A DNA stretch of 64,000 nt from a virus (IMGVR_UViG_3300008111_001118); one strand, 5' to 3'; positions 3,062 to 53,268 are shown, numbered from the stretch's first letter. Numbers and translations: made by a program. The notes: generated by a model not told the origin, from the letters alone.

Positions 3062-3787
3062 TTACTTTTTAACGTGTTCGGGTTTACCTTTGTGCTTGGT
3101 TTTAGCATAGTCTTTTGCGTCTGCTTTGCTCATGCCTTTAGCAGCCTTTGCTACTTCTTTACTAGCAGGCTTTTCGCCCGATTTTGCAGCGTAAACCATG
3201 CCCATAAACTTTTGTTGTGCTTTTGACTTGGCTTTTTCCAGCAACGACTTGTATGCTGTTGCTTCTGATTCTTTCATTTTTAAAGTTTTTGATTCAGCAG
3301 TAATAGGACTCATTACTTTTTCATCATACTCTAGTGCATGATATACACTGCCGATATAGTCTGCTGCTTTGGTAATCTTGCTTTGCTGCCAACCTTCGAG
3401 GCCTTCTGCTTCACTGATGTTTTTTAGCAATTCGTGTAGTTTAATTGCATACTTTGCAATTTTATAAAGTTCAGCACGAGCCATTTGTACTTCGTGATCT
3501 TGTTCTGCTGCACCAGCAAGTTCAGCAAGACCTTCAATTAGTTTAGATTCTGCCATAGCAGGCTGTCCGGCCTTGTTTGCTCTTGCTACAAGACCCTTGA
3601 TAATTTCTGGAGACATTCCAGTTTTTTGTGAAAGTTCTGCCATGTTCTTAGCACCAAACGGTGTGCCAAAGTTTTCCAAATGATCTGCTAGTCTTGCCAT
3701 TGCGTTAGCAATCATATCGTTTGGTTCTTTTACTGCTAGTTGTTGCAGTTTACGGCCTAGTGCAGCATACTTCATATTTGGTTCCAT
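3062..3787 (-). CDS. hypothetical Lys-rich protein (241 aa), probably a late/virion protein
   Basis: ORF preceded on the minus strand by CGATAAATA (T4-late-promoter-like, plus-strand 3811-3819); C-terminal K/A-rich tail. Confidence 0.5.
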   Translation of the reverse strand: MEPNMKYAALGRKLQQLAVKEPNDMIANAMARLADHLENFGTPFGAKNMAELSQKTGMSPEIIKGLVARANKAGQPAMAESKLIEGLAELAGAAEQDHEVQMARAELYKIAKYAIKLHELLKNISEAEGLEGWQQSKITKAADYIGSVYHALEYDEKVMSPITAESKTLKMKESEATAYKSLLEKAKSKAQQKFMGMVYAAKSGEKPASKEVAKAAKGMSKADAKDYAKTKHKGKPEHVKK

Positions 3788-3813: not shown

Positions 3814-4650
3814 TTATCGTTTAATTGTTTTACCGCCGAACAAACTTACATCTTTCATATCCAATGCGTTGTCAGTTGGCTTTTGCATTTTTACTTTTGT
3901 TTTACTGTTTGCAACAGTTGCTACACCGCCTGCACTAGTACCGCCTGCTGTAGCAGTTTCGGCAATTTCTTCAGTAAATTTCTTAGTAATTTTAATATCG
4001 TCACGTCCAAAGGCAGTTACAAATGCTTGGAATTCTTTTGGACCCATAACAAATTCGTTTGCGTTTGGTTTAAAGTATTGCATCACACGATCGTTTCTAC
4101 GTAGTGTGCTCATTAGTCTCGGACTGGTAACTGTAAAGTGTCTTGTAATCTTCTTTGCTGCTGGTTCAACTCGTGCGTCGGCACTACCCCATGATCCATC
4201 TGATCCTTTTTTCTTACCTTTTACAGTAATCTTATTGTCAACTTTGTCAGACTTTTCTTTTTCTTTATATTCTACTTTTACTTTACCATTACTGGCTTTT
4301 TCAATCTGTCCAAGAAATTCGCCAAAATACGAAAATCTGTTAGCCAGTCCTGGAGCATCGATGGATATTGTTACACCACGTGCTGCTGTAAATGTTTTGT
4401 CGGCAAGCATTTTTTTAATTGCATTAACCAAATCTTCCTTGCTTTTAAGATTGTAAAACTTCCATTTAGCATCGGCAAATTTTAAATCTGCTGCACTTGG
4501 AACAAAACCTGCATAACCTACCAAGTATGGGTTGTCATCACCACCACCTGCTGCGGCAATTGGCTTCTTAATGCCAAATCTCATAAAGATATTGCCGGCT
4601 GTTTTTTCTTTTTCTACTCTGTCTAGTTCTACAATCTGATTAACTTGCAT
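3814..4650 (-). CDS. hypothetical protein (278 aa)
   Basis: ORF; Lys-rich central region. Confidence 0.5.
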   Translation of the reverse strand: MQVNQIVELDRVEKEKTAGNIFMRFGIKKPIAAAGGGDDNPYLVGYAGFVPSAADLKFADAKWKFYNLKSKEDLVNAIKKMLADKTFTAARGVTISIDAPGLANRFSYFGEFLGQIEKASNGKVKVEYKEKEKSDKVDNKITVKGKKKGSDGSWGSADARVEPAAKKITRHFTVTSPRLMSTLRRNDRVMQYFKPNANEFVMGPKEFQAFVTAFGRDDIKITKKFTEEIAETATAGGTSAGGVATVANSKTKVKMQKPTDNALDMKDVSLFGGKTIKR

Positions 4651-4816
4651 TGTTATCCACCTACTAATTTACCGCGCAATGGGTGTTTTTGTGTTGGTCC
4701 CATAGTGGGATGTACTTTTTTAGGCATAGGATCGGATCCTTTTGCTTGGTCTGGTTTTTTCTTTTCGCGACCAACATCTACATTAAGTAAAGCAGTTTCT
4801 GTTATTTCAAAAACTT

Positions 4817-5122
4817 TCATTTTGCTTTCCTTAGACCTGCAATTTTTGCATTGATACCGTACTGTGCTAGTATTTGTTGTTTTGCTTCTTGAACATTACG
4901 TGCAGATACTTGAACAGGGATCCATTGACTATAGAACTTCTGTTGCACTTGTACGTTTGCAACAAAAATGGAAAACACCTGTGTATCTTTTAATTCACGT
5001 ATTAGCATATTAATATTTATTCCAATCAAACGGTTTACGTTTTTTAGGAATTTCTTCAACTGCATGACCGCCCTGCATTGCTGCCCATTCACGTAAACTA
5101 TATTTAGGCTCAACGGATTCAT
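4817..5122 (-). CDS. hypothetical small protein (true start probably an internal Met)
   Basis: ORF overlaps the 3' end of the 5010-6956 gene by about 110 nt; likely shorter in reality. Confidence 0.25.
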   Translation of the reverse strand: MNPLSLNIVYVNGQQCRAVMQLKKFLKNVNRLIGININMLIRELKDTQVFSIFVANVQVQQKFYSQWIPVQVSARNVQEAKQQILAQYGINAKIAGLRKAK

Positions 5123-6956
5123 TTGGGTTACTAGTCCAAAATGCCTTCCCTTGACTAGTTTGACTGGTACTAGGTTTAATATCGTTGCCCATACTTTTCA
5201 CAAATTTGTACATTGCAGTAGCTATTCCGTTGCGTTGATATTCATCATTAACACGCAAATTGCCGGCTACCAAATATGGATCAGCCTTTTTAAATCGTTT
5301 AAACAAACCAGAAGGTTCATCGTTTCCTATAACGATAAATCTCACATATCCAATAGACTTATTATCTATAAATGCTTCAACTTTTATTTGCGGAATCATA
5401 TTACTAGGATAATGATTTGCAACTATTTTTACTTTGCCTATCTTAGTATCAACTACAGTTTCTTTATGAAAGTCTTTGTTTAATAATTCAGGATTTATGC
5501 TTTCAAAAAGTCCTATGTTAAACAAAACATTTGTGTTAGATTCATTTAGTTTAAAGAACGGACCTTGGATGATACTTTTGCTTTTTTCTTTTACTAATCC
5601 TCTATTGAGATTTTTCTTAAATTCATCTGTGATGTGTCTATTTCGCAGTCCTTGACTAAAGAACAAGTGCGTTTCTACAGGATTGTTCCCGAACACCTTT
5701 GCTATTGCTGCCATGCGATTTCTGCCTTCATGCCCTACTACTCTAGCAGGCATAGAAAAATCACCATTTTCCCACGATTCTGGTATTTCTATTCTAAGGA
5801 AAGGACTGCCGATAGTGCCGCCTTGTTCGAGATGTTGGGCTATTTTTTCAGAAGGTTCACCGTCTAATGGTGCTGCTAGATCTATAAAATGCTTAGGAGT
5901 CATAGTCACACGCAAACCTAAATAATCGACTTCTTGGTTGTTAGGAACAGCACCCCATCCATTTTTATTGTCAATTATATCTACATTGGTATTGACACCT
6001 TTTACAATACGATCGTCTTCTTTAAAAAACTCATTTTCTCTTATTGTAAGACGACCTTGCTTTGTTAAAAATTCTTGATATTTTGGATCAGAGTGTTTCA
6101 TTACAAAATTTATAGAACTATCTTTGTTAAAATCGTTGAACGTATAAAAATTGGTACTTGGCCCAATAAACTGATATTCGTCGAAAGTTTTGTGATAAAT
6201 TACAGAATCAATTCTTCTAAAAAATAATCCTCGGCCGTATCTAGATTGAGAAAATTTGTCAACTACGTAATATCGTTTTTCTATTTTAACAATATCGTTT
6301 ATTTCAATATCTTCTCGCCAGTTTTCTGTATTTTCTTTGACTTGTTTCTTACTCTTGCTGTCTTCATAAACTGGATTGTTATTGTTTAACTTTGATTCTT
6401 TATAGTACGGATTTTTTGGATCAGTGTCTCCGGTAACATCTGGCCACCAATCTAACTCGAAACGTTTTCCATCAGCAAACATCTTCTTCATTGACTTGAT
6501 GCGCTTTTCATATTCGGCTTTCGAAGGTTTAACATTGTTTTCAACAACGTCAAGCACATATTGTATAGTAACTGCATTGGCACTTAAACTTGCACATCTT
6601 GCACCCACTTCACCTTTTAGATGATCTATTAAAATACTTTCGCTGCTTTTTGCCAAGTCGTCGGAAAGATCATGCGGTACTCTCAAGTCAACATAGGAAT
6701 AAACATAATCGTAGTGTGGTAGTGGTGACGAGTGTAGAATGTATTCGTCCAACACTTCGATTCTTTTAAATCCGTCTTTGTTATACCAAATTGCTCGTTT
6801 ATGTGTTAATTCATCTGGATTTTTAAAAAACTTTACCAGTTGTTTTACATATCCGGCAGGTTCGTCATTTTTCCATTGAGATAAAACATTTAAAGATTCA
6901 GCAACTTTTTTTCCACGCTTATCGTTTACTTCAAACAGATCTTGTATTTTCATCAT
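5010..6956 (-). CDS. large hypothetical protein (648 aa) with T4-like capsid-targeting N-terminus (MMKIQDLFE) and C-terminal GNAT-like motif
   Basis: N-terminus resembles T4 internal-protein targeting peptides ending in (L/I)-x-E; C-terminal region has an acetyl-CoA-binding-like Q/R-x-x-G-x-A motif (YQRNGIATAMY). Confidence 0.5.
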   Translation of the reverse strand: MMKIQDLFEVNDKRGKKVAESLNVLSQWKNDEPAGYVKQLVKFFKNPDELTHKRAIWYNKDGFKRIEVLDEYILHSSPLPHYDYVYSYVDLRVPHDLSDDLAKSSESILIDHLKGEVGARCASLSANAVTIQYVLDVVENNVKPSKAEYEKRIKSMKKMFADGKRFELDWWPDVTGDTDPKNPYYKESKLNNNNPVYEDSKSKKQVKENTENWREDIEINDIVKIEKRYYVVDKFSQSRYGRGLFFRRIDSVIYHKTFDEYQFIGPSTNFYTFNDFNKDSSINFVMKHSDPKYQEFLTKQGRLTIRENEFFKEDDRIVKGVNTNVDIIDNKNGWGAVPNNQEVDYLGLRVTMTPKHFIDLAAPLDGEPSEKIAQHLEQGGTIGSPFLRIEIPESWENGDFSMPARVVGHEGRNRMAAIAKVFGNNPVETHLFFSQGLRNRHITDEFKKNLNRGLVKEKSKSIIQGPFFKLNESNTNVLFNIGLFESINPELLNKDFHKETVVDTKIGKVKIVANHYPSNMIPQIKVEAFIDNKSIGYVRFIVIGNDEPSGLFKRFKKADPYLVAGNLRVNDEYQRNGIATAMYKFVKSMGNDIKPSTSQTSQGKAFWTSNPNESVEPKYSLREWAAMQGGHAVEEIPKKRKPFDWNKY

Positions 6957-7339
6957 ACACCATACTTGTTGCGTTTTGGTTTGGCAACTGGACTGTTTTT
7001 ATTTGTACTGTCCATTTCTTTACTTTTTGTATCGCCGTTGTTTAAATCTTTATAATTTAAACCAATTACTTTATAACTTTGTTTAAGCATTTCGGCTTCG
7101 ACTTCTGTGTACGGGTGTGCAGTTTTTTTCTTGCCTATCCAACTCATTGAATCCATATCTGGCGGAGTTTTTCCATCAGAACTTGCAAGGGCCATCATCA
7201 ATCTGTACTGTCCGTAGTCACTACCAAATGTTCCTAAATTCGGACCATCATCATATGTATGCAAACCTGCGGTTGACTCTTGTTCTCGTTTTGATAGTTT
7301 ACTTCCGGCGGCTTCACTGATTATATCATGTATTTTCAT
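6953..7339 (-). CDS. hypothetical protein (128 aa), paralog of 7341-7748; candidate internal head protein
   Basis: N-terminus MKIHDIISE; shares C-terminal ...SPVAKPKRNKYGV with the neighbouring ORF. Confidence 0.5.
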   Translation of the reverse strand: MKIHDIISEAAGSKLSKREQESTAGLHTYDDGPNLGTFGSDYGQYRLMMALASSDGKTPPDMDSMSWIGKKKTAHPYTEVEAEMLKQSYKVIGLNYKDLNNGDTKSKEMDSTNKNSPVAKPKRNKYGV

Positions 7340-7340
7340 G

Positions 7341-7748
7341 TTAAACTCCGTACTTGTTGCGTTTTGGTTTTGAAACCGGGCTTGACTTATTTACGTCCGT
7401 GGTTTCTGTGCTTTTACTACTGGTGATTTGCACTGGTGTAACACCCATCAATCTTGAGGCCAAAGTAACAATTTCTTCTTCTTCTTTGGTGTACGCAACC
7501 TGTGTTAAATTTTCTGCATATTCAGATTCTTGCTCAAAGTCGTCATTGGTTAAATGACCATCTGCCATTGCTTTTGCGGCTGCAACTGCAACACCGTATC
7601 TGTACTGCATGTAAGGATCTGTATTTCTAAGTTGCTTTTGTATAAAGGTAGCAGGCATAGGATCTGTAATTCTAGCAGGAAGTTTTCTAGACTTGCCAGT
7701 AAGTTTTGGTTCGCGCTGTTGTTCGTTAATAATGTCTCTAATTTTCAT
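7341..7748 (-). CDS. hypothetical protein (135 aa), paralog of 6953-7339; candidate internal head protein
   Basis: N-terminus MKIRDIINE; C-terminus ...SPVSKPKRNKYGV; internal blocks also align with the neighbour. Confidence 0.5.
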   Translation of the reverse strand: MKIRDIINEQQREPKLTGKSRKLPARITDPMPATFIQKQLRNTDPYMQYRYGVAVAAAKAMADGHLTNDDFEQESEYAENLTQVAYTKEEEEIVTLASRLMGVTPVQITSSKSTETTDVNKSSPVSKPKRNKYGV

Positions 7749-7969
7749 TTTTTCTTACGCCCTCTAAAACCCGGCTTTGTATTTAGCGCACCTGTCATGT
7801 GTGGAAGATTAAACCATAATTCAAACCATTCTTTATCACCAGGCTTGATATTTTTTTCTCGTTCTATACGACGTTTTTCTGTTCCGGTTACAGAGATGTT
7901 TTCGTTGTAAGGAGTATATCCTTTAAACTCATTTATGCCTGCAAGACGTTTTAGATCATCGATATTCAT
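7745..7969 (-). CDS. hypothetical basic protein (74 aa)
   Basis: ORF with 4-nt start/stop overlaps to both neighbours. Confidence 0.4.
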   Translation of the reverse strand: MNIDDLKRLAGINEFKGYTPYNENISVTGTEKRRIEREKNIKPGDKEWFELWFNLPHMTGALNTKPGFRGRKKK

Positions 7970-8771
7970 TTTTACCTTCTTGCTCTTTTTCTTTCCACCA
8001 ATTTAAAAAATTCATTGTTGGATTGCTTAGATACCAAGCAACATCTTTATATGTTTTAAATCTTGCTTGTAGCAATTCTTGTTTAATTTTTCCGTATTCT
8101 GGGTCACGCATTGCTCTTCTATCAGATGGTAAATTAATAAGTTCTTTTGATTTTTTACCGGCATACTTGCTTAAAAATTCTTGTAGGTTCAGCATATAGT
8201 AGAATGGTGTATCTACTATTACTTCGCCGTCCCATTCGCTTTGACTAGGAATACCTTGCTTATAACCTGCTAAGGCACGGTTAACTTCTTCACTAGCATC
8301 ATAGTCTGTTGGCCGCGATAAAGTCGTTCGCGCACCGCCTCCTAGATCTTTTGGTTTATATTTGTCATTGTAGCCTTCAAAACTTCCTAAGTCTAGTATC
8401 TCTGGGTTCCAATATGCTTTAAATTTACCACCCGGTATCATAATAAAGTTTGTGCCATGAAATCCTGATATATTATCGGGTGTAGTAACCAACGCTTGTG
8501 TAGGGTGTTGTACACCTAAACCGTTGAAGATTTTTTGTTGAAAGAAGCTACTATTGCCTTTTACACCTTTGCGTTCTCCGCCTTCGTTATTAACTTTTAT
8601 CATAAGATTTGTAGCGCCTCTGCTTCGAGATTCACCGCCCTCAAACATTCTATATAATATAGGAGTATTGCCTAGTTTATTACACATTTCAGCAGCAACT
8701 TTTACACGCTCAATAGCGTGATCTGTATCGTTAATAAATGTAACTTTTTCAGTAATCTCATTTACTTTCAT
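7956..8771 (-). CDS. hypothetical protein (271 aa), N-terminus MKVNEITE (capsid-targeting-like)
   Basis: ORF; no catalytic motif recognised. Confidence 0.45.
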   Translation of the reverse strand: MKVNEITEKVTFINDTDHAIERVKVAAEMCNKLGNTPILYRMFEGGESRSRGATNLMIKVNNEGGERKGVKGNSSFFQQKIFNGLGVQHPTQALVTTPDNISGFHGTNFIMIPGGKFKAYWNPEILDLGSFEGYNDKYKPKDLGGGARTTLSRPTDYDASEEVNRALAGYKQGIPSQSEWDGEVIVDTPFYYMLNLQEFLSKYAGKKSKELINLPSDRRAMRDPEYGKIKQELLQARFKTYKDVAWYLSNPTMNFLNWWKEKEQEGKNEYR

Positions 8772-9592
8772 TTCTTTTTAGCTCTTCCTGATTTCATATT
8801 GGCACACCAGTGGTACATCTTTCCACGTTCGCCGCCAGAATTCTTTGCACGTTTGCGTAATGCTGTTACACTGCCACTGCAACTAGCACCGGCACGTTTT
8901 ACTCTACCAGGACGGCTTTTGCCTTTTATTTTACCATCTGCAAAGTTTTCGTTATATGCTTTGTCGGCGGCTGCTTTTGCACTTGCACCATCTGGGTGGC
9001 GTGGATTAATACTAACAACATCACCATTCATAAGGTCGCTTACACTAGCACTCTTTCCTACTTTGTCCAACAGTTGATGCAGTTTATCATTTGGGTCGTA
9101 GCCATTGGTTTCATATCCCATTTTGCCACGTACTTCTGTTCTTTTGCCTGTGTTTTTATCTAAAATATGCAATATTAACATATTGGCACGTTTGTCACGT
9201 TCCAGTTGTAACAAATAATTTTTGCTATCAGCAACATTTTCGTTTATATCTACGTCGGCACTTTTAAAAAATTCTGGATATTTTTTGTTGAACATTCGCA
9301 TAATGATGCCGGCTTTTGTGTGTGCTTGGTTTTCTTCGGAACTACCAGTTTTGCCGCTGTCTTGATTTAGATCACCATCTAGCGATTGTTTAAAATGTAC
9401 AAGTTCGTGTGCAAACGTTCTTAGTATGTCAATAGGATGACGATCCTTAATACCTAGATATATAGCACGGTCATCGTTTACAAAACGTCCAAACGATGGA
9501 ATACATCTGTTGAGCAAGTTTAGGATTTGGTACACCTTGTGTAAATGAATCAAAGTCGCCTGTTGCTGCTGCCGCTCGCATTTTACTAGCAC
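8768..9592 (-). CDS. hypothetical protein with HExxH motif (possible Zn-metallopeptidase)
   Basis: FAHELVHF motif. The ORF as called overlaps the upstream gene by about 120 nt and there is no in-frame ATG/GTG after the upstream stop, so the start is uncertain. Confidence 0.3.
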   Translation of the reverse strand: MLVKCERQQQQATLIHLHKVYQILNLLNRCIPSFGRFVNDDRAIYLGIKDRHPIDILRTFAHELVHFKQSLDGDLNQDSGKTGSSEENQAHTKAGIIMRMFNKKYPEFFKSADVDINENVADSKNYLLQLERDKRANMLILHILDKNTGKRTEVRGKMGYETNGYDPNDKLHQLLDKVGKSASVSDLMNGDVVSINPRHPDGASAKAAADKAYNENFADGKIKGKSRPGRVKRAGASCSGSVTALRKRAKNSGGERGKMYHWCANMKSGRAKKK

Positions 9593-10049
9593 TCATGCCT
9601 TCTGCACCATCGGCGTCAGGATCTCTTTCGCCAGCACTTACAACTGTAATGCTATCAAACTGAAATGGTACTTTTCCGCTCTTGTCTGGTTTTCCATTGT
9701 AGGTGTCGAACAGTTTCTGAAAACCATCTACTCTGTCGCTGCCTGCAACAAACACAACATCAGTGTAACCTAAACTTTGAATATATTCTAGTGCAACAAC
9801 AGGTGTGTTAATGCCCTCACGACCGATTTCTATACCAGGAAAGAATGCCTTAGCAAACTTTAATTTTGTACCAAAGTCAAGTGGATCTTTTTTTTTATCT
9901 TGACTGTGACTTAAAAAAAGAAAATGATCGCCGGGTATGCTTTTGATTTTATCAACTAATTTAGCATGACCGATAGTTGGAGGATTCATTCTGCCAAATG
10001 CGAGAACTGCAACTTTACTACTTTGTTCAAACAGTTCTCTCAGTAGCAT
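9471..10049 (-). CDS. nucleotidyltransferase, cytidylyltransferase-like (HxGH family; NMN/NaMN adenylyltransferase-like)
   Basis: AVLAFGRMNPPTIGH matches the GxFxPxHxGH signature of the (H/T)IGH nucleotidyltransferase superfamily. Confidence 0.45.
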   Translation of the reverse strand: MLLRELFEQSSKVAVLAFGRMNPPTIGHAKLVDKIKSIPGDHFLFLSHSQDKKKDPLDFGTKLKFAKAFFPGIEIGREGINTPVVALEYIQSLGYTDVVFVAGSDRVDGFQKLFDTYNGKPDKSGKVPFQFDSITVVSAGERDPDADGAEGMSASKMRAAAATGDFDSFTQGVPNPKLAQQMYSIVWTFCKR

Positions 10050-10384
10050 TAGTATTCTCCTTTTTTAAAGTTCTCAACTTCTGCTTCTAAAATTCTATTG
10101 ATAATTTCAATTTTATCGTTATCGGCCAACAAGTCTTCCGGACGCTTTTTAATATTAAACTTTTTAACATACTTTTTAACAGCCGCATCAATAATCGGGA
10201 TCATTTCTTTCTTAGAAAACTTACCACCGTTCTTAACTGCTTCTTGTACATTTAACATCATAGGATACATATGTCTTCTATAAAATGCAGGATCGTTACG
10301 CATAAAGACCATAAGGTCTTCGACCAAATCCCACGGAAGATTTTCGTTCATATCCATATTTGAAAAATCTGTTACTTTTACCAT
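10049..10384 (-). CDS. hypothetical protein (111 aa)
   Basis: ORF. Confidence 0.4.
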   Translation of the reverse strand: MVKVTDFSNMDMNENLPWDLVEDLMVFMRNDPAFYRRHMYPMMLNVQEAVKNGGKFSKKEMIPIIDAAVKKYVKKFNIKKRPEDLLADNDKIEIINRILEAEVENFKKGEY

Positions 10385-11311: not shown

Positions 11312-12011
11312 TGTTTGCTTTATAGATTAACTTATCTATTCTGGTGATATTATCACCAACAATCATTTGCACCAGCATTACTACATGTTCATTACGTACA
11401 TACATGTAAGTTCCTTGAATCCAGCGATATTCGTTTTCGTGATGATCTAATGCAACTTTGCCAATTGAAACATTTTTAGAATTTTTCTTAATCCAGTCGG
11501 CTAATATCTTACTGCCCGGTTTCTTTCCAAATGTCAATTTCCAAGGAAACTTTGGTTCTTGATTTACTAAGATAACATTTTGATTGTTGGTTAGAAAGTC
11601 AATTGCTGACTCAGAAGGTTCCCATATTTCGACGTTAACAGAAAGTTTTGATGATACTTTTTTTAATAAGTCGTGGTCGTTTGTGTAAATTATAAGTGTA
11701 CGACTTTCACAACGAATCATATATTCGCCGGCATTTTTTAAACACTTGTATATGTGATAGGCTTCATCAACTTCGTGTGAATGTATAACTGTGGCTTTAG
11801 AAAATCTATTTCTAAGAGTTAAAATTTCATTGGATTTATTACGCTGAACAAATTCTTTTAAACGTTGTTCAGCGTAAGACAATTTACCATTACGTTGTAA
11901 ATCTGTACGGAAAATACTTGTAAGTGTATTTGTAGTTTTTAACTTATACAAATATTTCCCGTAATGCAATCGCTTTGCTTCATGCAGTTTCAGATTGCTC
12001 ATGTGTTTCAA
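11301..12011 (-). CDS. hypothetical protein (236 aa)
   Basis: ORF. Confidence 0.45.
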   Translation of the reverse strand: MKHMSNLKLHEAKRLHYGKYLYKLKTTNTLTSIFRTDLQRNGKLSYAEQRLKEFVQRNKSNEILTLRNRFSKATVIHSHEVDEAYHIYKCLKNAGEYMIRCESRTLIIYTNDHDLLKKVSSKLSVNVEIWEPSESAIDFLTNNQNVILVNQEPKFPWKLTFGKKPGSKILADWIKKNSKNVSIGKVALDHHENEYRWIQGTYMYVRNEHVVMLVQMIVGDNITRIDKLIYKANIDK

Positions 12012-14229
12012 CTACTAATTTAATCTCGTTATCATTGATATCGATATGTACTTCGCCGCCATCTTTTAGGCTTCCAAACAACATAAGCCTTGAAAGAGGA
12101 CGTTTAATATCTTTGTCAATCACACGTTGTAGCGGTCTTGCACCCATTTTAGGATCAAAGCCTTTGTCAACCAAGTAATCCAGTGCTTCGTCACTAACCG
12201 TAATTTTAACATTCTTGTCTTTGACTTGATCCATGAGTTCTTTCAAGAACTTTCCTACAATTTTCATCATAACAGGCTTGCTAAGTTTTGAGAATGTAAT
12301 TACACCATCGAGACGATTTCTAAATTCCGGACTGAAGTACTTCTTTAGTTCGCCGTCTTCGTAATCTCTGTCAAGACTTTGACTAAAACCAATAGTATTT
12401 TTCTCTGCTTCTTTAGCACCAAGGTTAGTGGTTAGGATAAGAACGCAGTTACGAGCATCTGCTTCTTTGCCGTTGGACCCTGTGATTTTACCATTGTCCA
12501 TCAACTGTAGAAGCACTGCACTAACATCAGGATGTGCTTTTTCAATTTCGTCTAGCAACAGTACACAGTTAGGATTCTCTTGTAGTTTGATGATGAGTTG
12601 TCCTGCATCATCTTCAAATCCAACGTAGCCCGGAGGTGCACCGATAAACTTTGCAATACTGTGCTTTTCTTGGTATTCACTCATATCAAAACGAATTAGT
12701 TTAACACCAAGGTGATGTGCAAGTTGTTTTGCTGTTTCAGTTTTACCAGTACCTGTTGGCCCCATAAACACAAACGAACCGATTGGTTTGTTTTCAGGTT
12801 TAAGTCCTGCTTGAGCAACAAGAATTTTGTCAACAATACTTTCAATTGCACTGTCTTGACCATAAACACTTGATTTTAGATTTGTTTCTAGATTGACAAG
12901 ATTTTCTGTTTCGCGTTCGGCAATTTGATCTTCGGGAATCTTTACAAGTTTAGCAAGTTCGTACTGAATATTTTCAGCAGTTACAACCTTGTTGTCAACT
13001 TGATCCAGCACTTTGAATCTGCTACATGCAACGTCAATGAGATCGATTGCTTTATCAGGAAGTTTTTTATCTGCTTGATACTTGACTGAAAGTTTAACAG
13101 CGGCTTCGATTGCATCATCAGTGATTACTACACTATGATAATCCTCATAGTACTTGCGAATACCATCAAGAATTTTAACAGACATTTCTGGTGTAGGTTC
13201 ATCAACATTTACACGCTGGAAACGACGCATAAGTGCGCGATCTTTTTCAAAATACTTGCGATACTCTTCCCAAGTAGTGCTTGCAACAACCTTAACGTTG
13301 CCTTTTGATAGGGCAGGTTTGAGCATGTTTGCAAGATCGTTAGCACTGTTTCCACTGCCAGCGCCTGCACCACTGATCATGTGTGCTTCATCAATAAACA
13401 TAATGGTCTTGCCCTTTGTTTGTAGGGCTTGAAGAACAAGTTTAAAGCGTTCTTCAAAGTCGCCGCGGTACTTACTGCCGGCAAGCATACTACCAATGTC
13501 CAGTGCATAAACATTATAGTCTTGTAAAAACTTTGGTACTTGTTTGTTAACAATTTTCCAAGCAAGACCTTCTGCAATTGCAGTTTTACCTACACCAGGA
13601 TCGCCAACCATTAGTACGTTTGACTTGGTTCTACGTCCAAGTGCAAGAGCAACTTGTTCTACTTCTTCTTCACGTCCAATAACAGGATCAATCTTGTTTT
13701 TCTTTACTTCGCTGTTCAAGTCTGTGGTAAAGGAACGAAGTGCCTTGTTAGCAACGCCTTGATTTTCCTGTTGTTCTTCTTCGTCAACCATGCTATCAAA
13801 TTCAGTACTCATGTAAGTAACAAATTTGTCTTTTGAGATACCGGCTTGTTGTGTTACAAAGTATGCATACGAACGTTTTTCGTTTAGAATACTAACAAAT
13901 ACGTCACCAACGTCAATGTTATTACGTCCATTAAACAATACCTGTGTAAATGCTCTATTCAATACACGTTCAACAGTTTGTGTCTTTTTAGGCTTGTACC
14001 TTGTGCCTTCGATCTTAATCTCATCTAGTTTTGTCTTGAGATAGTTTTCAAGATTCTTTTTCATTAGTTCAGGGTCGGCACCAAACCCAATAATAACTTT
14101 TTCAAAGTGTTCTTCACACAGTATTGCATACAAAAGATGCTCAAGTGTAATGTACTCATGCTGTAGTTTTTTAGCATCGTTCATTGCTTTGTCAAAAACA
14201 ACTTGTAGTACTTGGCTAGGTTCAACCAT
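11980..14229 (-). CDS. clpA: ClpA-like AAA+ unfoldase (Clp N-domain plus two AAA modules)
   Basis: Clp_N-like EYITLEHLLYAIL; Walker A GDPGVGKT (D1) and GPTGTGKT (D2); the segment KNTIGFSQSL...FSPEFRNRLDGVITF aligns with the E. coli ClpA ClpP-docking IGL/IGF loop region. Confidence 0.85.
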   Translation of the reverse strand: MVEPSQVLQVVFDKAMNDAKKLQHEYITLEHLLYAILCEEHFEKVIIGFGADPELMKKNLENYLKTKLDEIKIEGTRYKPKKTQTVERVLNRAFTQVLFNGRNNIDVGDVFVSILNEKRSYAYFVTQQAGISKDKFVTYMSTEFDSMVDEEEQQENQGVANKALRSFTTDLNSEVKKNKIDPVIGREEEVEQVALALGRRTKSNVLMVGDPGVGKTAIAEGLAWKIVNKQVPKFLQDYNVYALDIGSMLAGSKYRGDFEERFKLVLQALQTKGKTIMFIDEAHMISGAGAGSGNSANDLANMLKPALSKGNVKVVASTTWEEYRKYFEKDRALMRRFQRVNVDEPTPEMSVKILDGIRKYYEDYHSVVITDDAIEAAVKLSVKYQADKKLPDKAIDLIDVACSRFKVLDQVDNKVVTAENIQYELAKLVKIPEDQIAERETENLVNLETNLKSSVYGQDSAIESIVDKILVAQAGLKPENKPIGSFVFMGPTGTGKTETAKQLAHHLGVKLIRFDMSEYQEKHSIAKFIGAPPGYVGFEDDAGQLIIKLQENPNCVLLLDEIEKAHPDVSAVLLQLMDNGKITGSNGKEADARNCVLILTTNLGAKEAEKNTIGFSQSLDRDYEDGELKKYFSPEFRNRLDGVITFSKLSKPVMMKIVGKFLKELMDQVKDKNVKITVSDEALDYLVDKGFDPKMGARPLQRVIDKDIKRPLSRLMLFGSLKDGGEVHIDINDNEIKLVVETHEQSETA

Positions 14230-14740
14230 TTTTAATCCTTTTGATTCTGCGCTTTTCGGCCATTTTATATTTTAGTTTACTAACTCTGTCGATGTACTGA
14301 ATACCATGTAAATGATCGTATTCATGTAAGAATATACGTGCATCTATATCATCAAACTTTGTTTCTACATGTATAACATTTTTAAAGTCACTTGTCAAGG
14401 TATCAAATTCAACAATGCAACTAATTGGACGTTTTACTTTTAAAAACAGCCCAGGATGACTTAAACAGCCTTCGGGTCCTTCTTCAGTTTCTTTGCTTAA
14501 TCCTTTAATAACAGGATTCATCACAACAGTTATCTCACCGTATTGTCTATTTAACACAGGTTTCATAACAAAAATCTGATACGGTACTCCTACTTGATTA
14601 GCACTTAACCCTAGACCGCCTTCTTTAACCACAAGGTCGATCATATCTAATGCAATCGGTGCAGGATGCAGTTGATTAAACGGCCAAGTTTGCGTTGGCG
14701 TTTCTAGCATAACATTAGGTGCTAGTATTAATTGCATCAT
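14222..14740 (-). CDS. def: peptide deformylase
   Basis: [18 protein letters not shown] and HEYDHLHG motifs. Confidence 0.85.
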
Positions 14741-15521
14741 TTATAACTTTTATCCTTTCGATTATGATATCGTCTGATATCTTTGGAACAAAACCTTTTA
14801 CTGTTAGATAAAGATGGCCAGTTATTCCTTTAGCAGGGTCTATTAAACCGTATCCTGCAATAGAAAAAACAGTTCCAGGTTGAGTTCCTTTAGGTATTTT
14901 AACATTTATTTCGTTGCCAGTCAATGACTTAATAACAACGCTTGTTCCTAAAATAAGATCAAAAACACTAACTTCTTTTGTGCATTTTAGATTCTTACCA
15001 TCTCTTTCAAACACTGAATGTTTCTTTACTCTAACAAGAACAATTAAATCACCTCTAGGTATTGAAGCGATACTGTTGTCGCCTAGACCTTTAAAACGTA
15101 TGGCTTCGCCGTCTTGTATACCAGCATGTATTTTAATTGTAGCAATAGTACTTTGTCCATTAAACAAATTGTAATTTGCAATTAAATCTTTGCCAGTAAC
15201 TACTTCTTCTAAGTCTAGCGTAATTGCTATTTTAATATCTCGATTTTTTCTAACATTAGGATATCCACGCATAGTTCCAAAGAATGCATTTAATATGTCA
15301 TCCATGTTTGTTGAATTGAAGTTGTATTCCTGTTTAGGTTGATCATACTCTGCACGTTTTGTAGTATCTTTTAACGTTTCGTATGCTTCGTTTATTTCAG
15401 CAAAACGTATGGTATCACCACCCCTGTCAGGATGGTGTTCCATTGCTAATTTTCTATATGCTTTTTTTATTTCATCTTGTGTAGCAGTTTTTGAAACACC
15501 AAGTACTTTATAATAATCCAT
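14715..15521 (-). CDS. J-domain (DnaJ-like) co-chaperone
   Basis: N-terminal DYYKVLGV...HPDRGGD J-domain containing the HPD tripeptide. Confidence 0.7.
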
Positions 15522-32386: not shown

Positions 32387-33121
32387 TTATACAACTGTAC
32401 CTAGATCAACTGTTCCTGCTGTAGGTGAAACAAATGATCCAAAATCTACTCCAACTTGGTTGATTACCCAACTTAAAATACTGTTGCTAGTAATACTTGA
32501 AAATTCTCCAAAATCAAAACTCTCAATATAACGTCCTATAGAGTCGTAGTAATTTACTGTTTCGCTTCCTGTTTCTGAACTTTGTATATCAGTCAGTGTC
32601 ACTTTTGTTGCAACGACACTAGGTGTTACAATACTTTGTGTAGCAATATAATTAACATTTGTAATTTGTTTATTATTAGCATTAAGGTTTCCACCAAGTA
32701 CTGGTGTTGTTTCATTAACCAAGGCACCGTTGATTGTAATAGTTTTATTATTTTCGTTAATTCCTACAACAATTCCGCTGGCACCAAAGATATTGTAGTT
32801 TAAGCCAGGACCTGCAATCAAACTTCCAGCATCGCCTGTGATAATAAAGTTACCAGTAGGGGATATGGTATCAATAACAATAGTATTGTCAAGTTCTTGT
32901 AATGTTACACTGTTTCCAGCAACTAAACGTCTAAAATTTAAAACGTTGTCAACTGTGTTAGCGTACACTCTAGCACCAGCAGAACCTAAGTTTGCTGCAC
33001 TTTGAAATGCAATCAGTTCAATCTCTTGAAAGTTTTGATTTATCTTGATAAAGGCTTCTCGAAGATCATCACCTGTTCCGTCGTTAGCCGAGTTGCCCAC
33101 ATTGATATTTTGAATAGCCAT
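32387..33121 (-). CDS. tail-fibre-like protein (244 aa) with conserved N-terminal domain
   Basis: N-terminus MAIQNINVGNSANDGTGDDLREAFIKINQNF is shared with three other genes; late-promoter-like motif upstream. Confidence 0.55.
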   Translation of the reverse strand: MAIQNINVGNSANDGTGDDLREAFIKINQNFQEIELIAFQSAANLGSAGARVYANTVDNVLNFRRLVAGNSVTLQELDNTIVIDTISPTGNFIITGDAGSLIAGPGLNYNIFGASGIVVGINENNKTITINGALVNETTPVLGGNLNANNKQITNVNYIATQSIVTPSVVATKVTLTDIQSSETGSETVNYYDSIGRYIESFDFGEFSSITSNSILSWVINQVGVDFGSFVSPTAGTVDLGTVV

Positions 33122-34479: not shown

Positions 34480-35343
34480 TTACCAAGTGTCGCCCGACCA
34501 AGCAACTCGTTTCCAAATGTTAGTGACACCGTCATGGTTTTGTGTGCAGTAGTACATATATGTACTGTCAAATGCTACTGATCCCACGTAATCATCGCTA
34601 ACACCTATACTTGTAGATGGCACCGCGGAAAGTATTCTTACATATTCCGTAATAAGAACAACGGTTTTACCACCGCTAGTATTTCCATCTCCGATTTGTA
34701 CTTGCGATATTCCATCTTGGGAAACTATAAAGTTTGTATAGACGTTGTTATTATCAACTTCCCCGACAATCTTACCTGCCACACCATCTACCAGTAGTGT
34801 GCTGTCGTCAGCGAATACACTACCAGTGACATCACCATCTAGTGAAGTTTGTGGTCCTGTATAGGCAGTAATCTGTACCGTGGCATCTGGAAATGTCAAC
34901 GCTCCTGCACTATCAAATTTCCAGATTCGACTTCCGCCGACATACGTAACTTCGATTCCGGCTCCGTAGCCATCCTCCACCCAAATGTAAGTACCGTCTG
35001 TACTTTGTAACTGAGCGAGCGGTGCTTGGATATCAATAATTTCGCCTGTAGGGTTAGTTATACCATTGGCATCAAAAACAATATTACCCAAACTGGGTAT
35101 AGTCGGTTTATTGGTTAAATCATTGTAACTGCCACTGAATGTGGAATATTGACTAAGACTAACGCTGTTGCCACCACTTATAGCTAATGTGTTTCCTACT
35201 AAAGTCAATGTTTGAGCATCAGTGTTTACTGCACGATCATACAATTCAGTAAAGTTGCTGTTGATCTTAGTAAAGGCTGTACGTAGCGGATCGCCATCGC
35301 CTTTGTTTGCACTCGACCCTATGTTAATGTTCTGCTTTGCCAT
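34480..35343 (-). CDS. tail-fibre-like protein (287 aa) with conserved N-terminal domain
   Basis: N-terminus MAKQNINIGSSANKGDGDPLRTAFTKINSNFTELY. Confidence 0.55.
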   Translation of the reverse strand: MAKQNINIGSSANKGDGDPLRTAFTKINSNFTELYDRAVNTDAQTLTLVGNTLAISGGNSVSLSQYSTFSGSYNDLTNKPTIPSLGNIVFDANGITNPTGEIIDIQAPLAQLQSTDGTYIWVEDGYGAGIEVTYVGGSRIWKFDSAGALTFPDATVQITAYTGPQTSLDGDVTGSVFADDSTLLVDGVAGKIVGEVDNNNVYTNFIVSQDGISQVQIGDGNTSGGKTVVLITEYVRILSAVPSTSIGVSDDYVGSVAFDSTYMYYCTQNHDGVTNIWKRVAWSGDTW

Positions 35344-38300
35344 TATACTCTTCCTACTACTACTTCAACAACGCCTCTAACATCGTCTAACTTGTTAGAA
35401 ACTGCTTTACCTATTACAGTACCAACACGAGGATCATTGTCAACTATGCCGTATCCTGGTATTGCACTTGTAACAATCAAGTCACCTTTTTGTACCTTGC
35501 CAAGAACCTTAACTGGTACACGCCCTTGCAGTGCAACCCCAGTTACAAAATCGCCTTCTAATGCACTGTTCATCAAGTGCGCTGGATTGGTTGTAACAAC
35601 ACCTGCTACACGTCGATCGCCCTTAACATTGGTTACAGTAACTTCTTGTTCGCCACCAAACACCAGTACAGTACCGGGTTCGTATGCTACGTCAGAAAGA
35701 TAGTTTTCTGCCAAGTCAGCATACAATGCTTCTGTAGCAGTACCGTTGAATGTTGTAGCATAAACAGTATTCCAACGTCTTGTACTTAGACCCAGCATCT
35801 GTCCGCTGTCTGTTGGACTGTTTAACCCAGGTATAATATTACCACCCATAGTAAGTATACCAGCAACAGTAACGTTATTAGGAAGACCTATAGTAACTGT
35901 TCCACCTGCTTGTGCTACTGTGGTTTCGTTTGCAGTTGCAGCAAATGTCAGTGTTCCTCCTAGAGCGATACTACTTGCTGTAGTGCCATCTGTTACAGAA
36001 ATGCTGCTGTTTGCAAGTTTGCTATTTGCAATTCCGCTTGTTAGTATTGATATCCATCCACTGCTAGCAGTAAATTCTGCACTGTTAAAACTAGCAAGAC
36101 CTCTATCGCCTTGTGTGATTCCAGTTGCGTTTGCTCTAGTTGTGGCAGCGTTCATACTCAATTTACTTTGAGCAATTGCTGCTGATGCACTTACATCAGC
36201 ATTAACAATAGATCCTGAGTTGTATTGTGCGCTTAATACACCTGCAGAATAAGTAAATGTAACGTCGCTAACCAACGGATCTGAAGAAAATGCTTCGTTG
36301 GTCCACTTGCTAGTAGATCCGTTATAAACTAAAATCTCAGCATTTGCAGGAGTTACAATTGCAACATCGTCTAGTTCTGACAATTCATCTTGTGCTGCTA
36401 GTAATCCATCAACATAATTTTTATTAACAGCATCTGTTCCAGCAGTCGGGGATCCTAGGTTAGTAATTTGATTACCACCCATACTTAGATTGCCAGTCAT
36501 AGTATCGCCGGCTTTTCTAATAGCGCCGCCGCCGATGATGTCTCCTAATAGTAGTGCATCACCGTCTCTGTCCCATCCTAAACGTTTGTTAATGTAACCT
36601 TCGACTGCGGTTTCAGTAGGTACACTATCGCCAGTTGCGTTAGTAAATGTAGTATCTGGTGAAAACTCGTTAACTCTAACACCACGTTTGAAACCAATAC
36701 CGTCGATGTTTGTTAGAACAAGTGCAGCGTTAAATGTAACACGACCGGTGCCTTGGTCAACTGTAAAGAATCTACCTACACGGAAGAAACCGTCTTGGTC
36801 AGTACTTGCAAAGAACACACGTCCTCTTACACGTTCTTGTACCTGTGCTTTGGTATTGAATCCGTTGCTATCCACTGCTTGTTCGTCAGTTACTGCGGCT
36901 TCAATTGGTGCACCGTAAATTCTATCAGGATAGTTAGAAGTGTTGTATCCACCAGTACCGATATCCAGGAAGTCATGACTTGTTGCACGAGTAGTACTGA
37001 TATTAACAGTGATATTGGCAGTTGCCCCAGTATCTAAACCTGCTTTGAGTGTGATATTGTCACCTATTGAACTGTCTGCTCTTACAGCAATACCTGTTCC
37101 AACATACGTAGGGTGAATACTGTACACATCAGTAAATGTAATAATACCTAGAGTATCACCGTTTAATCCAGATGTTCCGCTGGTATCAACAATTTCAGAA
37201 TAACCTGTAATTTCAAACTGTTTGCCGCCCCAAGTAAATACCATTCCTAGTATTCTTGTTTTATCAACAGTATCGAGTCTTGCAATTACAATATTAAGAT
37301 CTCCTACTGTTCTTCCAAGTGTAGTTCCACCTGTAGGAGCAGTTCCTATAGTGCTGCTAACTGTGTAGTTTACACCTAAGTTGTAACTGGCTCTATCATT
37401 GTCCACATTCAAGTCAATGTAAGAAAAGTTATCATCAACACCAACAACTGCCTGTGTACCAACAACCGGAATACCACTAACAATTGTATTTTCAAATGCA
37501 ATTGTTCTGTATGTATAAACTGGATACTCGTTAAATATAAAAGCAGTACTAGGTCTTGTTAGAACGTCTGAAGTGATTCCGTTTACATAGAAGTTTTGTT
37601 TTGCACGATAAACTGCCAACGTGCCAAACCCAGTAAGTTCTTGGATACCAGTGTCTGCGGTTGCAACACCACTGGTTAGATCAAGTCTCCATATTTTTGC
37701 ACGAATAGTACTTGTACTGTCGCACAATGAACTTACAAGGTTTGATGGAATTTCTAATCCTGTATCGGTAACGCTTACAACTTCGTAAGGTTGATACAAT
37801 CCAGTGGTATGAAGAATTTCAATTTCGCTGGCATTTAGCGGATAGTCGGTTAAGTCGTAAACATAAACAGCAACATCGTTTTCATTTGCAGTAAAGTTTC
37901 TATTTACAACTGTATATGGTGCAGTTCCTAGAGCAGTGCTGCCGCCTTCAACTATTTGATCACTAGCATTAAAACTACCACCGGTTATGTTTTCAATATA
38001 CAGTATGGTATTGCCGCCCACTACATCAAAAAATGCCAATTGACCTGTAACTGTTCCAGTTACTTGATCTTGCTTGATATTTTCGCCAGCAGTGAGCAAT
38101 GCACTTACATCGCCTGTTACTGTTACTTCTTGTTCAACTACATATATTTTTGCAGGCTGTACAAGAGGCTGTACAAGACTTGCTACTCTTGAAACTTCGT
38201 CAGGATCGCTGCCTTCTGCAACCATACCAAACGTACCGTAACTGTTGTTACCAGTTAGTGATCGTATCTGCGAACCGTTGCGTGAATAATAACCTGTGTG

Positions 38301-45840: not shown

Positions 45841-46458
45841 TTATCTTTTTTCAACAACCTTATCGGCCAACCCATATTCTACTGCTTCTTCTGCTGATAG
45901 GAATGTGTCAAACTTCATGGTGTCGAACATGTCTCCGTAGGTCTTGCCTTTTGCATTGTGTTTTACATACAGTTCTGTAAGACGCTGGTTAATGCGTTGG
46001 CTCTCTTCAAAACTACGACGAGCATCTTCAAACTGTAGTTCTTGCACGTGAACACTACCGCGTGTTCCTGGTGTACCCGAACTTACACGGTGAATCATTG
46101 TACGTGATTGAGGCAATACATAACGCTTGCCTGCTGCACCTGCTTGTGCAAGAAAACTGCCCATGCTAGCGGCTTGACCCATAACAATAGTGCTAACGTC
46201 TGGTTTGATAAACTGCATGGTATCGTAGATAGCAAGACCAGCAGTAACCAGTCCGCCTGGGCTATTGATGTAAAGATTGATGTCTTTTTCAGCATCTACA
46301 CTTTCAAGAAACAGCATTTGTGCTACAACAAGATTGGCCATGTTGTCTTCAACTGGTCCGTTGAGCATGATAATGCGATCTTTAAGCAAACGGCTATAGA
46401 TGTCGTAAGAACGTTCGCCGCGTGATTCTTGTTCGATTACGATAGGTACTAGTGGCAT
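45841..46458 (-). CDS. clpP: ATP-dependent Clp protease proteolytic subunit ClpP
   Basis: Canonical ClpP sequence with active-site GQAASMGS (Ser), His and Asp in conserved positions; 205 aa. Confidence 0.9.
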
Positions 46459-50013: not shown

Positions 50014-50097
50014 TGGTGCCCACTGCCGGACTCGAACCGGCACTCCAGAGGAAGCAAATTTTAAGTCTGCCGCGGCTACCAATTTCACCAAGCGGGC
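50014..50097 (-). tRNA. tRNA-Leu(TAA), class II
   Basis: Hand-folded: acceptor GCCCGCT/AGTGGGC, anticodon stem GCAGA/TTTGC with loop CTTAAAA, long variable arm, T-arm CCGG-TTCGAGT-CCGG, encoded CCA. Confidence 0.8.
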
Positions 50098-50100
50098 ATT

Positions 50101-50496
50101 TTATTTTTTATACTTATCACCGGTAACTTGACCGGCACTCATTATAATAACTGGAATACGTTTAATATTCATTTCACGAAATGCAAAGTAACGATGATGT
50201 CCATCAATTACTTGATAAGTGTTTTCTCGTGGAATTCTTCTTACTAGTATTGGAGGTATCTTGCTGATATCTCGTTTTATCTGTTTTTTAATACTGTTTA
50301 TATTTGCTCTAGCATCAACATCTTTAGTATCACCTTTACCGTCTCCTTCGAATCTAGATCGGATCTGATTCATAGGCATTACAACAACTCGGTTGTATTC
50401 GTTTTTAAAATCAGTTACATTGGCACCGACAGTACTGTCACCAGTTTCAGGATCAACGTCTTTGGTTATTTTTGCTACTACTTCAAATATTTTCAT
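50101..50496 (-). CDS. ParB-like nuclease domain protein (about 131 aa from the internal Met MKIFEV)
   Basis: DGHHRYFAF motif of the ParB/sulfiredoxin fold. The ORF as called (to 50553) would overlap tRNA-Leu(CAA), so the internal start is preferred. Confidence 0.5.
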   Translation of the reverse strand: MKIFEVVAKITKDVDPETGDSTVGANVTDFKNEYNRVVVMPMNQIRSRFEGDGKGDTKDVDARANINSIKKQIKRDISKIPPILVRRIPRENTYQVIDGHHRYFAFREMNIKRIPVIIMSAGQVTGDKYKK

Positions 50497-50512
50497 ATAG
50501 TATTTATTATTT

Positions 50513-50595
50513 GGTGCCCCAGGAGGGACTTGAACCCCCACGCCTTGCGGCAAAAGATTTTGAATCTTCCGTGGCTACCATTACACCACTAGGGC
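50513..50595 (-). tRNA. tRNA-Leu(CAA), class II
   Basis: Hand-folded: acceptor GCCCTAG/CTGGGGC, anticodon loop TTCAAAA, long variable arm, T-loop TTCAAGT, CCA encoded. Confidence 0.75.
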
Positions 50596-50820
50596 AAAGT
50601 GTTGTTTAAAGGTGGCATCAGCACTTGTCTAGTACAAATTTATCGGGCCCAGCTGCGTTCAAACAACTATGTGTCTGTTTTTACACCTACGTAAGGACTA
50701 GAATGTTTTTTATCCTTACTCCTTTAAACAATATAGTAATTAGCCTAGCAATAACCTATAGCATATCGCCGGGTCGCGGTCGACTCACTTCCCTTACACC
50801 CCCAAGGTGCAGGCTAAAAT

Positions 50821-50896
50821 TGGTTGCGGTGGGCAGGACTCGAACCTGCGATTTACTGGTTATGAGCCAGTCGAGATGCCGCTTCTCTACCCCGCA
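50821..50896 (-). tRNA. tRNA-Met/Ile2(CAT)
   Basis: D-stem GAGA/TCTC, anticodon stem ACTGG/CCAGT with loop CTCATAA, T-arm GCAGG-TTCGAGT-CCTGC; acceptor has one mismatch. Confidence 0.65.
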
Positions 50897-52133: not shown

Positions 52134-52162
52134 AATATAGTGCATGTTGCACCAAAGGTCAA
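52134..52162 (-). promoter_or_regulatory. sigma70-like promoter (TTGACC-N17-TATATT) firing leftward into the 1.3-kb ORF-free region
   Basis: Read from the sequence; copy 1 of a duplicated promoter-leader module (see 54979-55008). Confidence 0.55.
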
Positions 52163-52191
52163 CCACTTTTTTATCTTTTTTTATTTTTTTT

Positions 52192-53262: not shown

Positions 53263-53268
53263 ATATAC

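Follow-up and report, generated by a model that had tools for sequence, protein, structure and literature searches.

The proteins gp24, Alt, IPII and IPIII of phage T4 belong to the head or its interior (PMC9026906), and the prohead protease gp21 cleaves after the motif L/I-x-E (PMC9026906; PMC3012670). The first 10 residues of IPIII are enough for loading into the head, and within this tag residues 4 and 7 serve targeting and residues 8 and 10 serve processing; an Asp at position 10 blocks cleavage, and loading is kept (PMC9026906; PMC3012670). Outside the tag the internal proteins in T-even phages are diverse (PMC9026906; PMC3012670). Here we analyse a stretch of 64,000 nucleotides of viral DNA (IMGVR_UViG_3300008111_001118, taken at its full length and called the window), in which each of nine consecutive genes on the minus strand, from position 10049 down to 3814, starts with a similar short peptide, the leader. 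We consider it probable that these genes (3814-10049) make up the internal-protein locus of a jumbo T4-like myovirus not yet in culture, where a variant of the T4 capsid-targeting propeptide is carried by hypervariable, domain-shuffled cargo. By analogy with T4, the leader would bind the scaffolding core during prohead assembly, and the attached protein would be built into the head; a gp21-type prohead protease would then cut after the Glu of [I/L]-x-E, and the mature basic proteins would remain with the packaged DNA and enter the cell along with it.

The leader is real and N-terminal; selection acts on it as a peptide, it is portable from one unrelated cargo to another, and the canonical T4 tag can take its place. 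The cargo, which is modular and fast-evolving, comprises a fusion of a nucleotidyltransferase with an HExxH region, a ParB/sulfiredoxin-like domain, a possible GNAT domain, a domain resembling secretion chaperones, and small basic proteins.

The leader and the genes that carry it

The leader follows the pattern M-[KQL]-[IVL]-x-[DEQ]-[IL]-x(1-2)-E or a longer form of it, with the consensus M-K-Φ-x-[D/E]-Φ-Φ-x-E (Φ, hydrophobic) and a propeptide length of 8-14 residues. When the 569 Met starts in the six frames of the window that have at least 40 further codons were scanned with a regular expression, it matched gene starts of the leader cluster only and none elsewhere, the extended form matching only the gene for a protein of 74 amino acids (aa). 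Nine consecutive genes, against about 0.2 matches expected in the whole window, is far beyond chance. The five adjacent open reading frames (ORFs) whose N-termini had drawn attention to this region are all present on the minus strand at the positions given for them, and the cluster is larger than the five genes first counted, as MLLRELFE, MLIRELKD, MKVFEITE and MQVNQIVE bring it to nine. A predicted cleavage site, [I/L]-x-E, lies within residues 6-14 in eight of the nine, the protein of 63 aa having an Asp at the cleavage position; the T4 result for Asp at position 10 bears on this protein, since its motif ends in that residue.

The N-termini of T4 (NC_000866) are MKTYQEFIAE in IPII and IPIII, MKTFKEF...ITE in IPI, MAKINELLRE in gp24 and MELITELFDE in Alt, and the series Φ-x-E-Φ-Φ-x-E, at residues 4-10 of the T4 leaders, is found at residues 3-9 and in aliphatic form in those of the window. 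A single regular expression picks out only gp24, Alt, IPII, IPIII and gp2 from 147 ORFs in 61 kb of T4, and only the leader cluster (7 of 146 ORFs) in the window. The gp2 protein, too, is packaged in the head, and it enters the cell with the DNA.

An all-against-all comparison of the nine proteins gave one paralogous pair, of 128 and 135 aa (E 3.9e-14), and for the remaining proteins the leader is the sole shared sequence; paralogy was rejected as the source of the similarity. Identical leader residues have different codons in 38% of cases and the mean nucleotide identity is 52%; the leader is thus selected as a peptide and not as DNA, and a nucleotide-level motif was rejected as well. So was a signal peptide, the leader being short, acidic and without a long hydrophobic stretch. 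All nine proteins are basic, with isoelectric points (pI) of 8.6-10.2. Their genes overlap or abut, at spacings of -14 to +2 nt, and belong to a single transcription unit that takes in their neighbours upstream as well. Loading into the prohead needs late synthesis, and the genes had been described as early; promoter and terminator scans of the window were uninformative, with TATAAATA present once only, and there are no intergenic gaps, so that no expression class can be assigned and this label was dropped.

At the upstream end, the first leader gene appears in the window as a 192-aa ORF (9471..10049), its 5' part, with the leader MLLRELFE and a nucleotidyltransferase, and a 274-aa ORF (8768..9500), its 3' part, with a metallopeptidase-like HExxH region and a basic tail at the C-terminus, ...HWCANMKSGRAKKK. 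The window is 179 bp short between positions 9500 and 9501, which puts the two out of frame; three independent assemblies have these 179 bp (cf. L034:7278-7456), and there the two ORFs make up a single in-frame gene of 486 aa with leader, nucleotidyltransferase, HExxH region and basic tail. The junction shows TA/T microhomology only and falls on a round coordinate, and the absence could be a natural variant or an artefact of assembly or editing. Both a profile match (PHROG 3041 'cytidyltransferase', E 4.6e-52) and an HxGH-type motif, PPTIGH, place the product of the first gene among the nucleotidyltransferases, of cytidylyltransferase/NMNAT-like type; Pfam PF01467 scores 19.9 bits, just below its cut-off of 21.

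The 271-aa cargo (7956..8771, leader MKVNEITE) is followed by the basic 74-aa protein (7745..7969), whose N-terminus, MNIDDLKRLAGINE, is longer, less typical and the poorest fit to the leader, its position 2 not being basic and its spacer being longer; in another phage (locus L081) a related cargo (IKPGD..WF.LWF) has the leader in its canonical form, MKIRDIITE. Then come the 135-aa protein (7341..7748, leader MKIRDIINE, tail SPVSKPKRNKYGV), which is a member of a widespread small family with the motif Y.QYRYG.A.A..DG, its 128-aa paralogue (6953..7339, MKIHDIISE) and a multi-domain cargo of 648 aa (5010..6956, (M)MKIQDLFE, with a conserved tail ...KPFDWNKY). The last three are basic proteins of 63 aa (4817..5008, MLIRELKD from an internal Met, called as 63 aa in L032), 55 aa (4653..4820, MKVFEITE) and 278 aa (3814..4650, pI 9.8, MQVNQIVE), and the C-terminal module of the last, ...TSAGGVATVAN...QKPTDNALDMKDVSLFGGKTIKR, is found again in other phages, in small proteins where it stands immediately behind the leader. 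Profile searches with Pfam, PHROG and NCBIfam returned nothing or sub-threshold matches for most of the cargo, and sequence searches of the cargo against the PDB gave no match.

Among unrelated leader proteins and their relatives, certain short basic tails come up repeatedly at the C-terminus (genes at 8768, 3814, 6953, 7341, 7745 and 10378; L003, L028, L029, L031), in the forms ...HW(C/L/Q)ANMK(S/A)GR(A/K)KKK, ...GG(K/S)(T/P)IKR, ...KPKRNKYGV, ...GFRGRKKK and ...ARYWSCRKW. DNA binding and an ejection signal are possibilities for them.

Structure prediction, which had been suggested for the 648-aa and 271-aa proteins, was fruitful for the former. Its AlphaFold model, built on an alignment of 78 sequences, has two confident parts, residues 20-185 (predicted local distance difference test, pLDDT, about 95) and 335-470 (about 92), and low confidence in the leader (residues 1-3 and 6-18 below 50), the linkers and the C-terminus. 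The 271-aa model had a mean pLDDT of 40.7 and was not taken to a fold search. Foldseek gave no significant match of the 648-aa model in the PDB. Domain 1 (residues 20-185, nt 6402-6899) weakly matches the fold of type III secretion chaperones or YbjN, and no Pfam model covers it. It is 58-95% identical across more than 100 proteins, in lineages that differ in leader class and gene content, and belongs to a wider family with 958 cluster representatives at E <= 1e-3, mostly more divergent (about 27-45% identical). This strong conservation stands within a fast-evolving locus. In homologues, domain 1 occurs at any position and is fused to GH19+LysM, nucleotidyltransferase (PF01467), zeta-toxin/AAA, ParBc+amidoligase, NT5C or HAD-like partners; it was ruled out as a trafficking module on that ground, the leader being always N-terminal.

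The middle domain (residues 335-470, nt 5547-5954) resembles sulfiredoxin and the N-terminal domain of ParB; its GHEGRNR motif fits this, as does a homologue in BFVD that bears the name ParB/Sulfiredoxin (E 1e-17). A GNAT-like acetyl-CoA motif had been claimed for the C-terminus, and a motif A candidate, QRNGIA, is indeed present in a weakly GNAT-like region (residues about 497-600, nt 5157-5468); the profiles there stay below their cut-offs (Pfam 16.8 against 20.7 and 16.7 against 27 bits, NCBIfam 22.3 against 194) and the Foldseek matches to GNAT (E >= 0.08) fall in the low-confidence part of the model. The signals are consistent yet sub-threshold, and the assignment is weak.

Some relatives encode the parts of the 648-aa protein in separate genes, each with a leader of its own (MKIHEILAE before domain 1, MRLREIFE before DGRIVKG...). 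In the homologues a Glu precedes the module DGRIVKGVNTTVDV in 20 of 20 relevant cases, with I, L, M or V usually at P3 (about 5990-6030 in the window), and in relatives the same module directly follows the N-terminal leader, DGRIVKG coming straight after MRLREIFE. Three further matches of this type, LVTH-DGRV, were set aside as being of different context. A Glu likewise precedes NFADGK in all 13 cases. From these alignments we tentatively put forward that the multi-domain leader proteins may be polyproteins, in which the leader would bring the whole chain into the prohead and the prohead protease would cut also at the inter-domain [I/L/M/V]-x-E and free separate injected modules. If this is true, then together with the interchangeable leaders it would amount to a grammar of leader, cleavable linker and module, by which environmental T4-like phages could reshuffle what they inject.

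The leader in other phages and their head modules

As the original prediction implied, the N-terminal similarity is conserved in orthologues. The leader is kept in close relatives (L001-L003) and in more distant ones (L009-L012, L022, L028-L031), and among 20 sequences of the 271-aa family, which go down to 50% identity, M1, K2 and E8 hardly vary. The gene content and domain order of the locus vary among relatives and its flanks (ClpA ... DNA polymerase) are conserved; the same leader stands on unrelated proteins, and the cargo varies between related phages.

In other lineages, homologous cargo carries the canonical T4 tag (MKxFKxF[IL]xE) in place of the aliphatic leader. Domain 1, at 78-86% identity, follows MIGFKQYIKE or MKSFKQF in Kyanoviridae-like contigs, where the neighbouring genes share that tag, and the middle domain follows MQTFKQFLSE in the Ralstonia phage RsoM2USA. 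The nucleotidyltransferase starts with MKKFNAFLIE in P-RSM4 (PRSM4_191) and with MRFRQFIIE in S-SZBM1, and P0136, a cargo of the 271-aa family at 65% identity, starts with MKGFASFSE. Judged from these sequences, the leader class tracks the lineage of the phage rather than the cargo, as would be expected of a signal that is read by the phage's own head-assembly machinery. The S-SZBM1 protein, S-SZBM1_140, is a homologue of the first gene of our cluster (36% identity, E 1e-25); it has been detected by liquid chromatography-mass spectrometry in CsCl-purified cyanophage virions, and was described as the sole enzyme of the structural proteome (PMC9146016). This suggests that cyanophages package their cytidylyltransferase, which is commonly counted among the auxiliary metabolic genes, in the head.

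A degenerate DNA pattern for MKIxDIIxE, used to scan IMG/VR for the leader without regard to cargo, matched at least 118 loci, and in 102 of those listed it falls on the first Met of an ORF (at least 40 aa). The listed cargos are very diverse; some are homologous to the 128/135-aa family, to the tail module of the 278-aa protein or to the 74-aa cargo, and about 85% are without a known family. Among the remaining ones are GH19 and SLT hydrolases, sigma-70 region 4, a DnaA-type helix-turn-helix, GNAT, polynucleotide kinase and three matches to T7 gp0.7-like kinases. T4-type gp17, gp18, gp20, gp21 or gp23 genes lie within a few kb in 26 listed loci. In L093 a leader ORF is found between gp21 and gp23, the position of the scaffold (gp22), in L097 leader ORFs with MKIKDIIDE and MKARDLLVE are found between the portal and gp21, the position of gp67/68, and in L076, L057, L069 and L107 a 78-80-aa ORF starting MILRELFY comes after the portal. 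In these leader-bearing head modules Peptidase_S77 (PF03420), Portal_T4 and Gp23 score above the Pfam thresholds, PF03420 in L076 and L097 with 86 bits against a cut-off of 27.

Alternative explanations of the leader

Several points weigh against an internal-protein locus. We infer packaging, cleavage and injection in the window phage, and any effector role of the cargo, by analogy, and the matches on which the cargo functions rest are weak. The leader of the 63-aa protein ends in Asp (Gln in a relative), and the N-terminus of the 74-aa protein is atypical. The homologous nucleotidyltransferase of phage PA5oct is without a leader, and the PA5oct record gives no note of electrospray ionisation tandem mass spectrometry for it, unlike for its neighbours; belonging to this enzyme family therefore does not in itself make a protein part of the virion, and the leader is an addition made in certain lineages. 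In a control scan in which the ATG was left out (K-I-x-D-I-I-x-E), only 21 of 123 matches followed an ATG. The peptide also occurs inside proteins, internal matches including one conserved GGHKICDIIEEED family, so the use of the leader at N-termini is enriched about tenfold and is not exclusive. A gp21-type protease, for which a search had been suggested, was not found, since the head module of this phage lies outside the window; neither the flanks fetched by extension from a gene near the window end nor a tblastn search of all loci with the head proteins of T4 and S-SZBM1 recovered that module. The presence of gp21 in this phage is argued from its T4-like gene content and from the other leader-bearing phages. 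About 50 of the 123 control-scan matches, all among those that did not follow an ATG, belong to a conserved viral family with the internal motif GGHKICDIIEEEDKY (L164-L234).

The leader could instead be a motif for prohead-core assembly and cleavage on scaffold-like or DNA-condensing internal proteins (cf. T4 gp67, gp68, IPII and IPIII), which would be structural or expelled rather than injected enzymes acting on the host. The occurrence of the same leader at the gp22 and gp67/68 positions of T4-type head modules speaks for this, as do the small size of five of the nine proteins, the basic character of all nine and the weakness of the enzyme assignments. We nevertheless find it unlikely, as the locus is far from any head module, between ClpA and DNA polymerase, and is hypervariable and shuffled, with enzyme partners (nucleotidyltransferase, ParB/Srx, GH19, zeta-toxin-like, HAD), whereas scaffold genes are normally conserved and syntenic; moreover, the leader proteins of T4 that are not scaffold, Alt and IPI, are injected effectors. 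Another thought comes from the neighbourhood. Directly upstream of the cluster, in the window and in all close relatives, are the genes for DnaJ (14715-15521), peptide deformylase (14222-14740) and a ClpA-like double-AAA unfoldase (11980-14229), which together with a ClpP-like protein elsewhere (45841-46458) form a proteostasis set, and the leader might be a recognition tag by which such a set unfolds, turns over or delivers the proteins. The conserved arrangement is in its favour, but the leader is also found in T4 head-module contigs with no ClpA nearby, the tag on homologous cargo in cyanophages and RsoM2USA is the proven one of T4, and PA5oct has ClpA yet a nucleotidyltransferase without leader, and we give this idea very little credence.

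Hardly credible, finally, is that the similarity reflects recent duplication or a nucleotide-level feature (a translation-initiation region, an A-rich bias of the 5' coding sequence or a recombination site) with no functional peptide. The genes are indeed tightly packed and probably translationally coupled, and AAA is common as second codon in well-expressed genes. Against this are the codon differences and low nucleotide identity given above, and other genes of the window, some of them equally tightly coupled, are without the motif, which persists across lineages and can be replaced by another class of peptide on the same cargo; duplication is contradicted by the single paralogous pair among the nine. 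We retain the internal-protein locus as our explanation. The idea of T4-style, gp21-cleavable capsid-targeting N-termini is well supported by comparison, through the orthologues, the exchange of tags, S-SZBM1_140 in virions and the Peptidase_S77 neighbours; in the original prediction the early expression lacks support, the count of five genes was too low and the GNAT domain is weaker than claimed.

Phage proteins that are injected with the DNA act before any phage gene expression, and are for this reason prime candidates for countering host defences. To our knowledge, very few injected proteins are known outside T4, P1 and the phiKZ-like phages. If the leader is a loading signal, the injected cargo of environmental T4-like and jumbo phages would become readable and searchable from sequence; one degenerate DNA pattern already leads to more than 100 unrelated candidate cargo proteins in IMG/VR, among them peptidoglycan hydrolases, kinase-like and sigma-like proteins and many without known function. 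Such leaders, if they act as we propose, could also serve as new loading tags for engineered protein delivery in phage heads.

The phage and its place among known systems

The cluster is bordered on the minus strand by two further genes. A 111-aa gene upstream (10049..10384) starts with what may be a degenerate leader, MVKVTDF (relatives have MVKINEF or MVKINDF; cf. MAKINELLRE of T4 gp24), and its membership of the cluster is uncertain. A 241-aa gene downstream (3062..3787) has a C-terminal DUF3008 domain and no leader, and is the conserved downstream border of the variable locus. Nearly all genes of the window are on the minus strand. It is AT-rich, with a GC content of 35-47% in 2-kb windows and about 36-39% around the leader cluster, and has T4-like replication and tail genes. 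Besides the proteostasis genes, it encodes a clamp loader, DNA ligase, RNA ligase, thymidylate synthase, gp9/gp10-like tail-fibre connectors and 18 tRNAs, the latter in an array on the minus strand (50014-54598).

The nearest phages in GenBank are the jumbo myoviruses PA5oct, Atu_ph07, Phosso and XaC1, with at most 44% protein identity, and a search of GenBank phages at the DNA level gave no match to the window. PA5oct was dropped as a cultured proxy, since it is not syntenic and its nucleotidyltransferase has no leader. An identical copy of the 648-aa protein is present on at least 23 contigs, one of them a 263-kb scaffold (48 blocks of the collection in the index), and contigs related to the window reach 337 kb. 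The source is an abundant, uncultured jumbo T4-like phage, for which the names of samples and records suggest a freshwater origin. A capsid-protein search with L076 as query did not reach the 263-kb scaffold, its best 120 hits being relatives on other contigs. The Gp23-family capsid protein of the L076 group is 87-100% identical over the best 120 of more than 8000 hits (87-91% outside the query's own cluster), on contigs of up to 371 kb; capsid conservation is very high in this abundant environmental clade.

A second set of shared N-termini, MAIQNINVGNSANDGTGD, MAKQNINIGSSANKGDGD and MAKQEVNIGVEGNDGTGD, is found on tail-fibre/baseplate-connector proteins (32387-33121, 34480-35343 and 35343-40931) that match PHROGs for gp9/gp10-like connectors, and is probably a common module for baseplate attachment. 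The window further encodes a Band_7/SPFH-domain protein of 470 aa (57287-58699). A small cREC_REC-domain protein (PF20274) adjoins a T4-type RNA ligase in L041 (8820-9209), and cytochrome c (PF00034) and alternative oxidase (PF01786) genes stand beside the RNA-ligase region in L044 (502-1528; ENA ERZ27248008 k141_1670186), a close relative that is a variant of the window at about 62-64 kb. These two are auxiliary genes unusual in a phage.

Compared with IPI, IPII, IPIII and Alt of T4, the locus has in common a short N-terminal propeptide, Φ-x-[D/E]-Φ-Φ-x-E, that ends in [I/L]-x-E, the presence of one leader on unrelated basic proteins, a variable gene content, and cargo that is in part enzymatic, as Alt is. 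Unlike the tag of the T4 internal proteins, the leader of the window is one residue shorter and aliphatic (I/V/L) where T4 has Tyr or Phe, which brings it closer to the propeptides of gp24 and Alt. Nine genes are clustered here, whereas the T4 genes are scattered (ipII and ipIII at about 65-66 kb, ipI at about 74 kb, alt at about 124-125 kb), and the cargo is, unlike in T4, multi-domain and shuffled.

The cytidylyltransferase region of cyanophages (Kyanoviridae; S-SZBM1_140, PRSM4_191) is similar in that a homologous domain stands behind a T4-type leader among leader-bearing neighbours. The cyanophage leaders are, unlike those of the window, of the aromatic T4 type (MRFRQFIIE, MKKFNAFLIE), and the cyanophage literature treats the enzyme as an auxiliary metabolic gene and does not describe it as capsid-targeted. 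The polyvalent proteins of phages and conjugative elements, which Iyer et al. (2017, J Bacteriol) reportedly predicted to travel with the DNA into a new host, combine ParB-like, zeta-toxin-like, metallopeptidase, peptidoglycan-hydrolase and nucleotide-enzyme domains in varying fusions, which those of the 648-aa protein's homologues resemble. The window proteins differ from them in being smaller (55-648 aa), often of one or few modules, and in having a T4-type leader on each gene, and no MuF or portal-associated head domain was seen in them. In the phiKZ-like giants (phiKZ, 201phi2-1, SPN3US) many head-internal proteins are likewise cut after Glu by a gp21-related protease, some of them at several sites (PMC9026906). 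Unlike in the window, the motif there is S/A-x-E, the review describes no short common N-terminal tag (PMC9026906), and the lineage is unrelated. The concept of a leader that sorts proteins into the head is known from T4, and what is new is an aliphatic class of leader, a locus of this size and modularity in a jumbo phage from the environment, the connection with the cytidylyltransferase of cyanophages, and the demonstration that the leader itself serves for mining candidate injected proteins.

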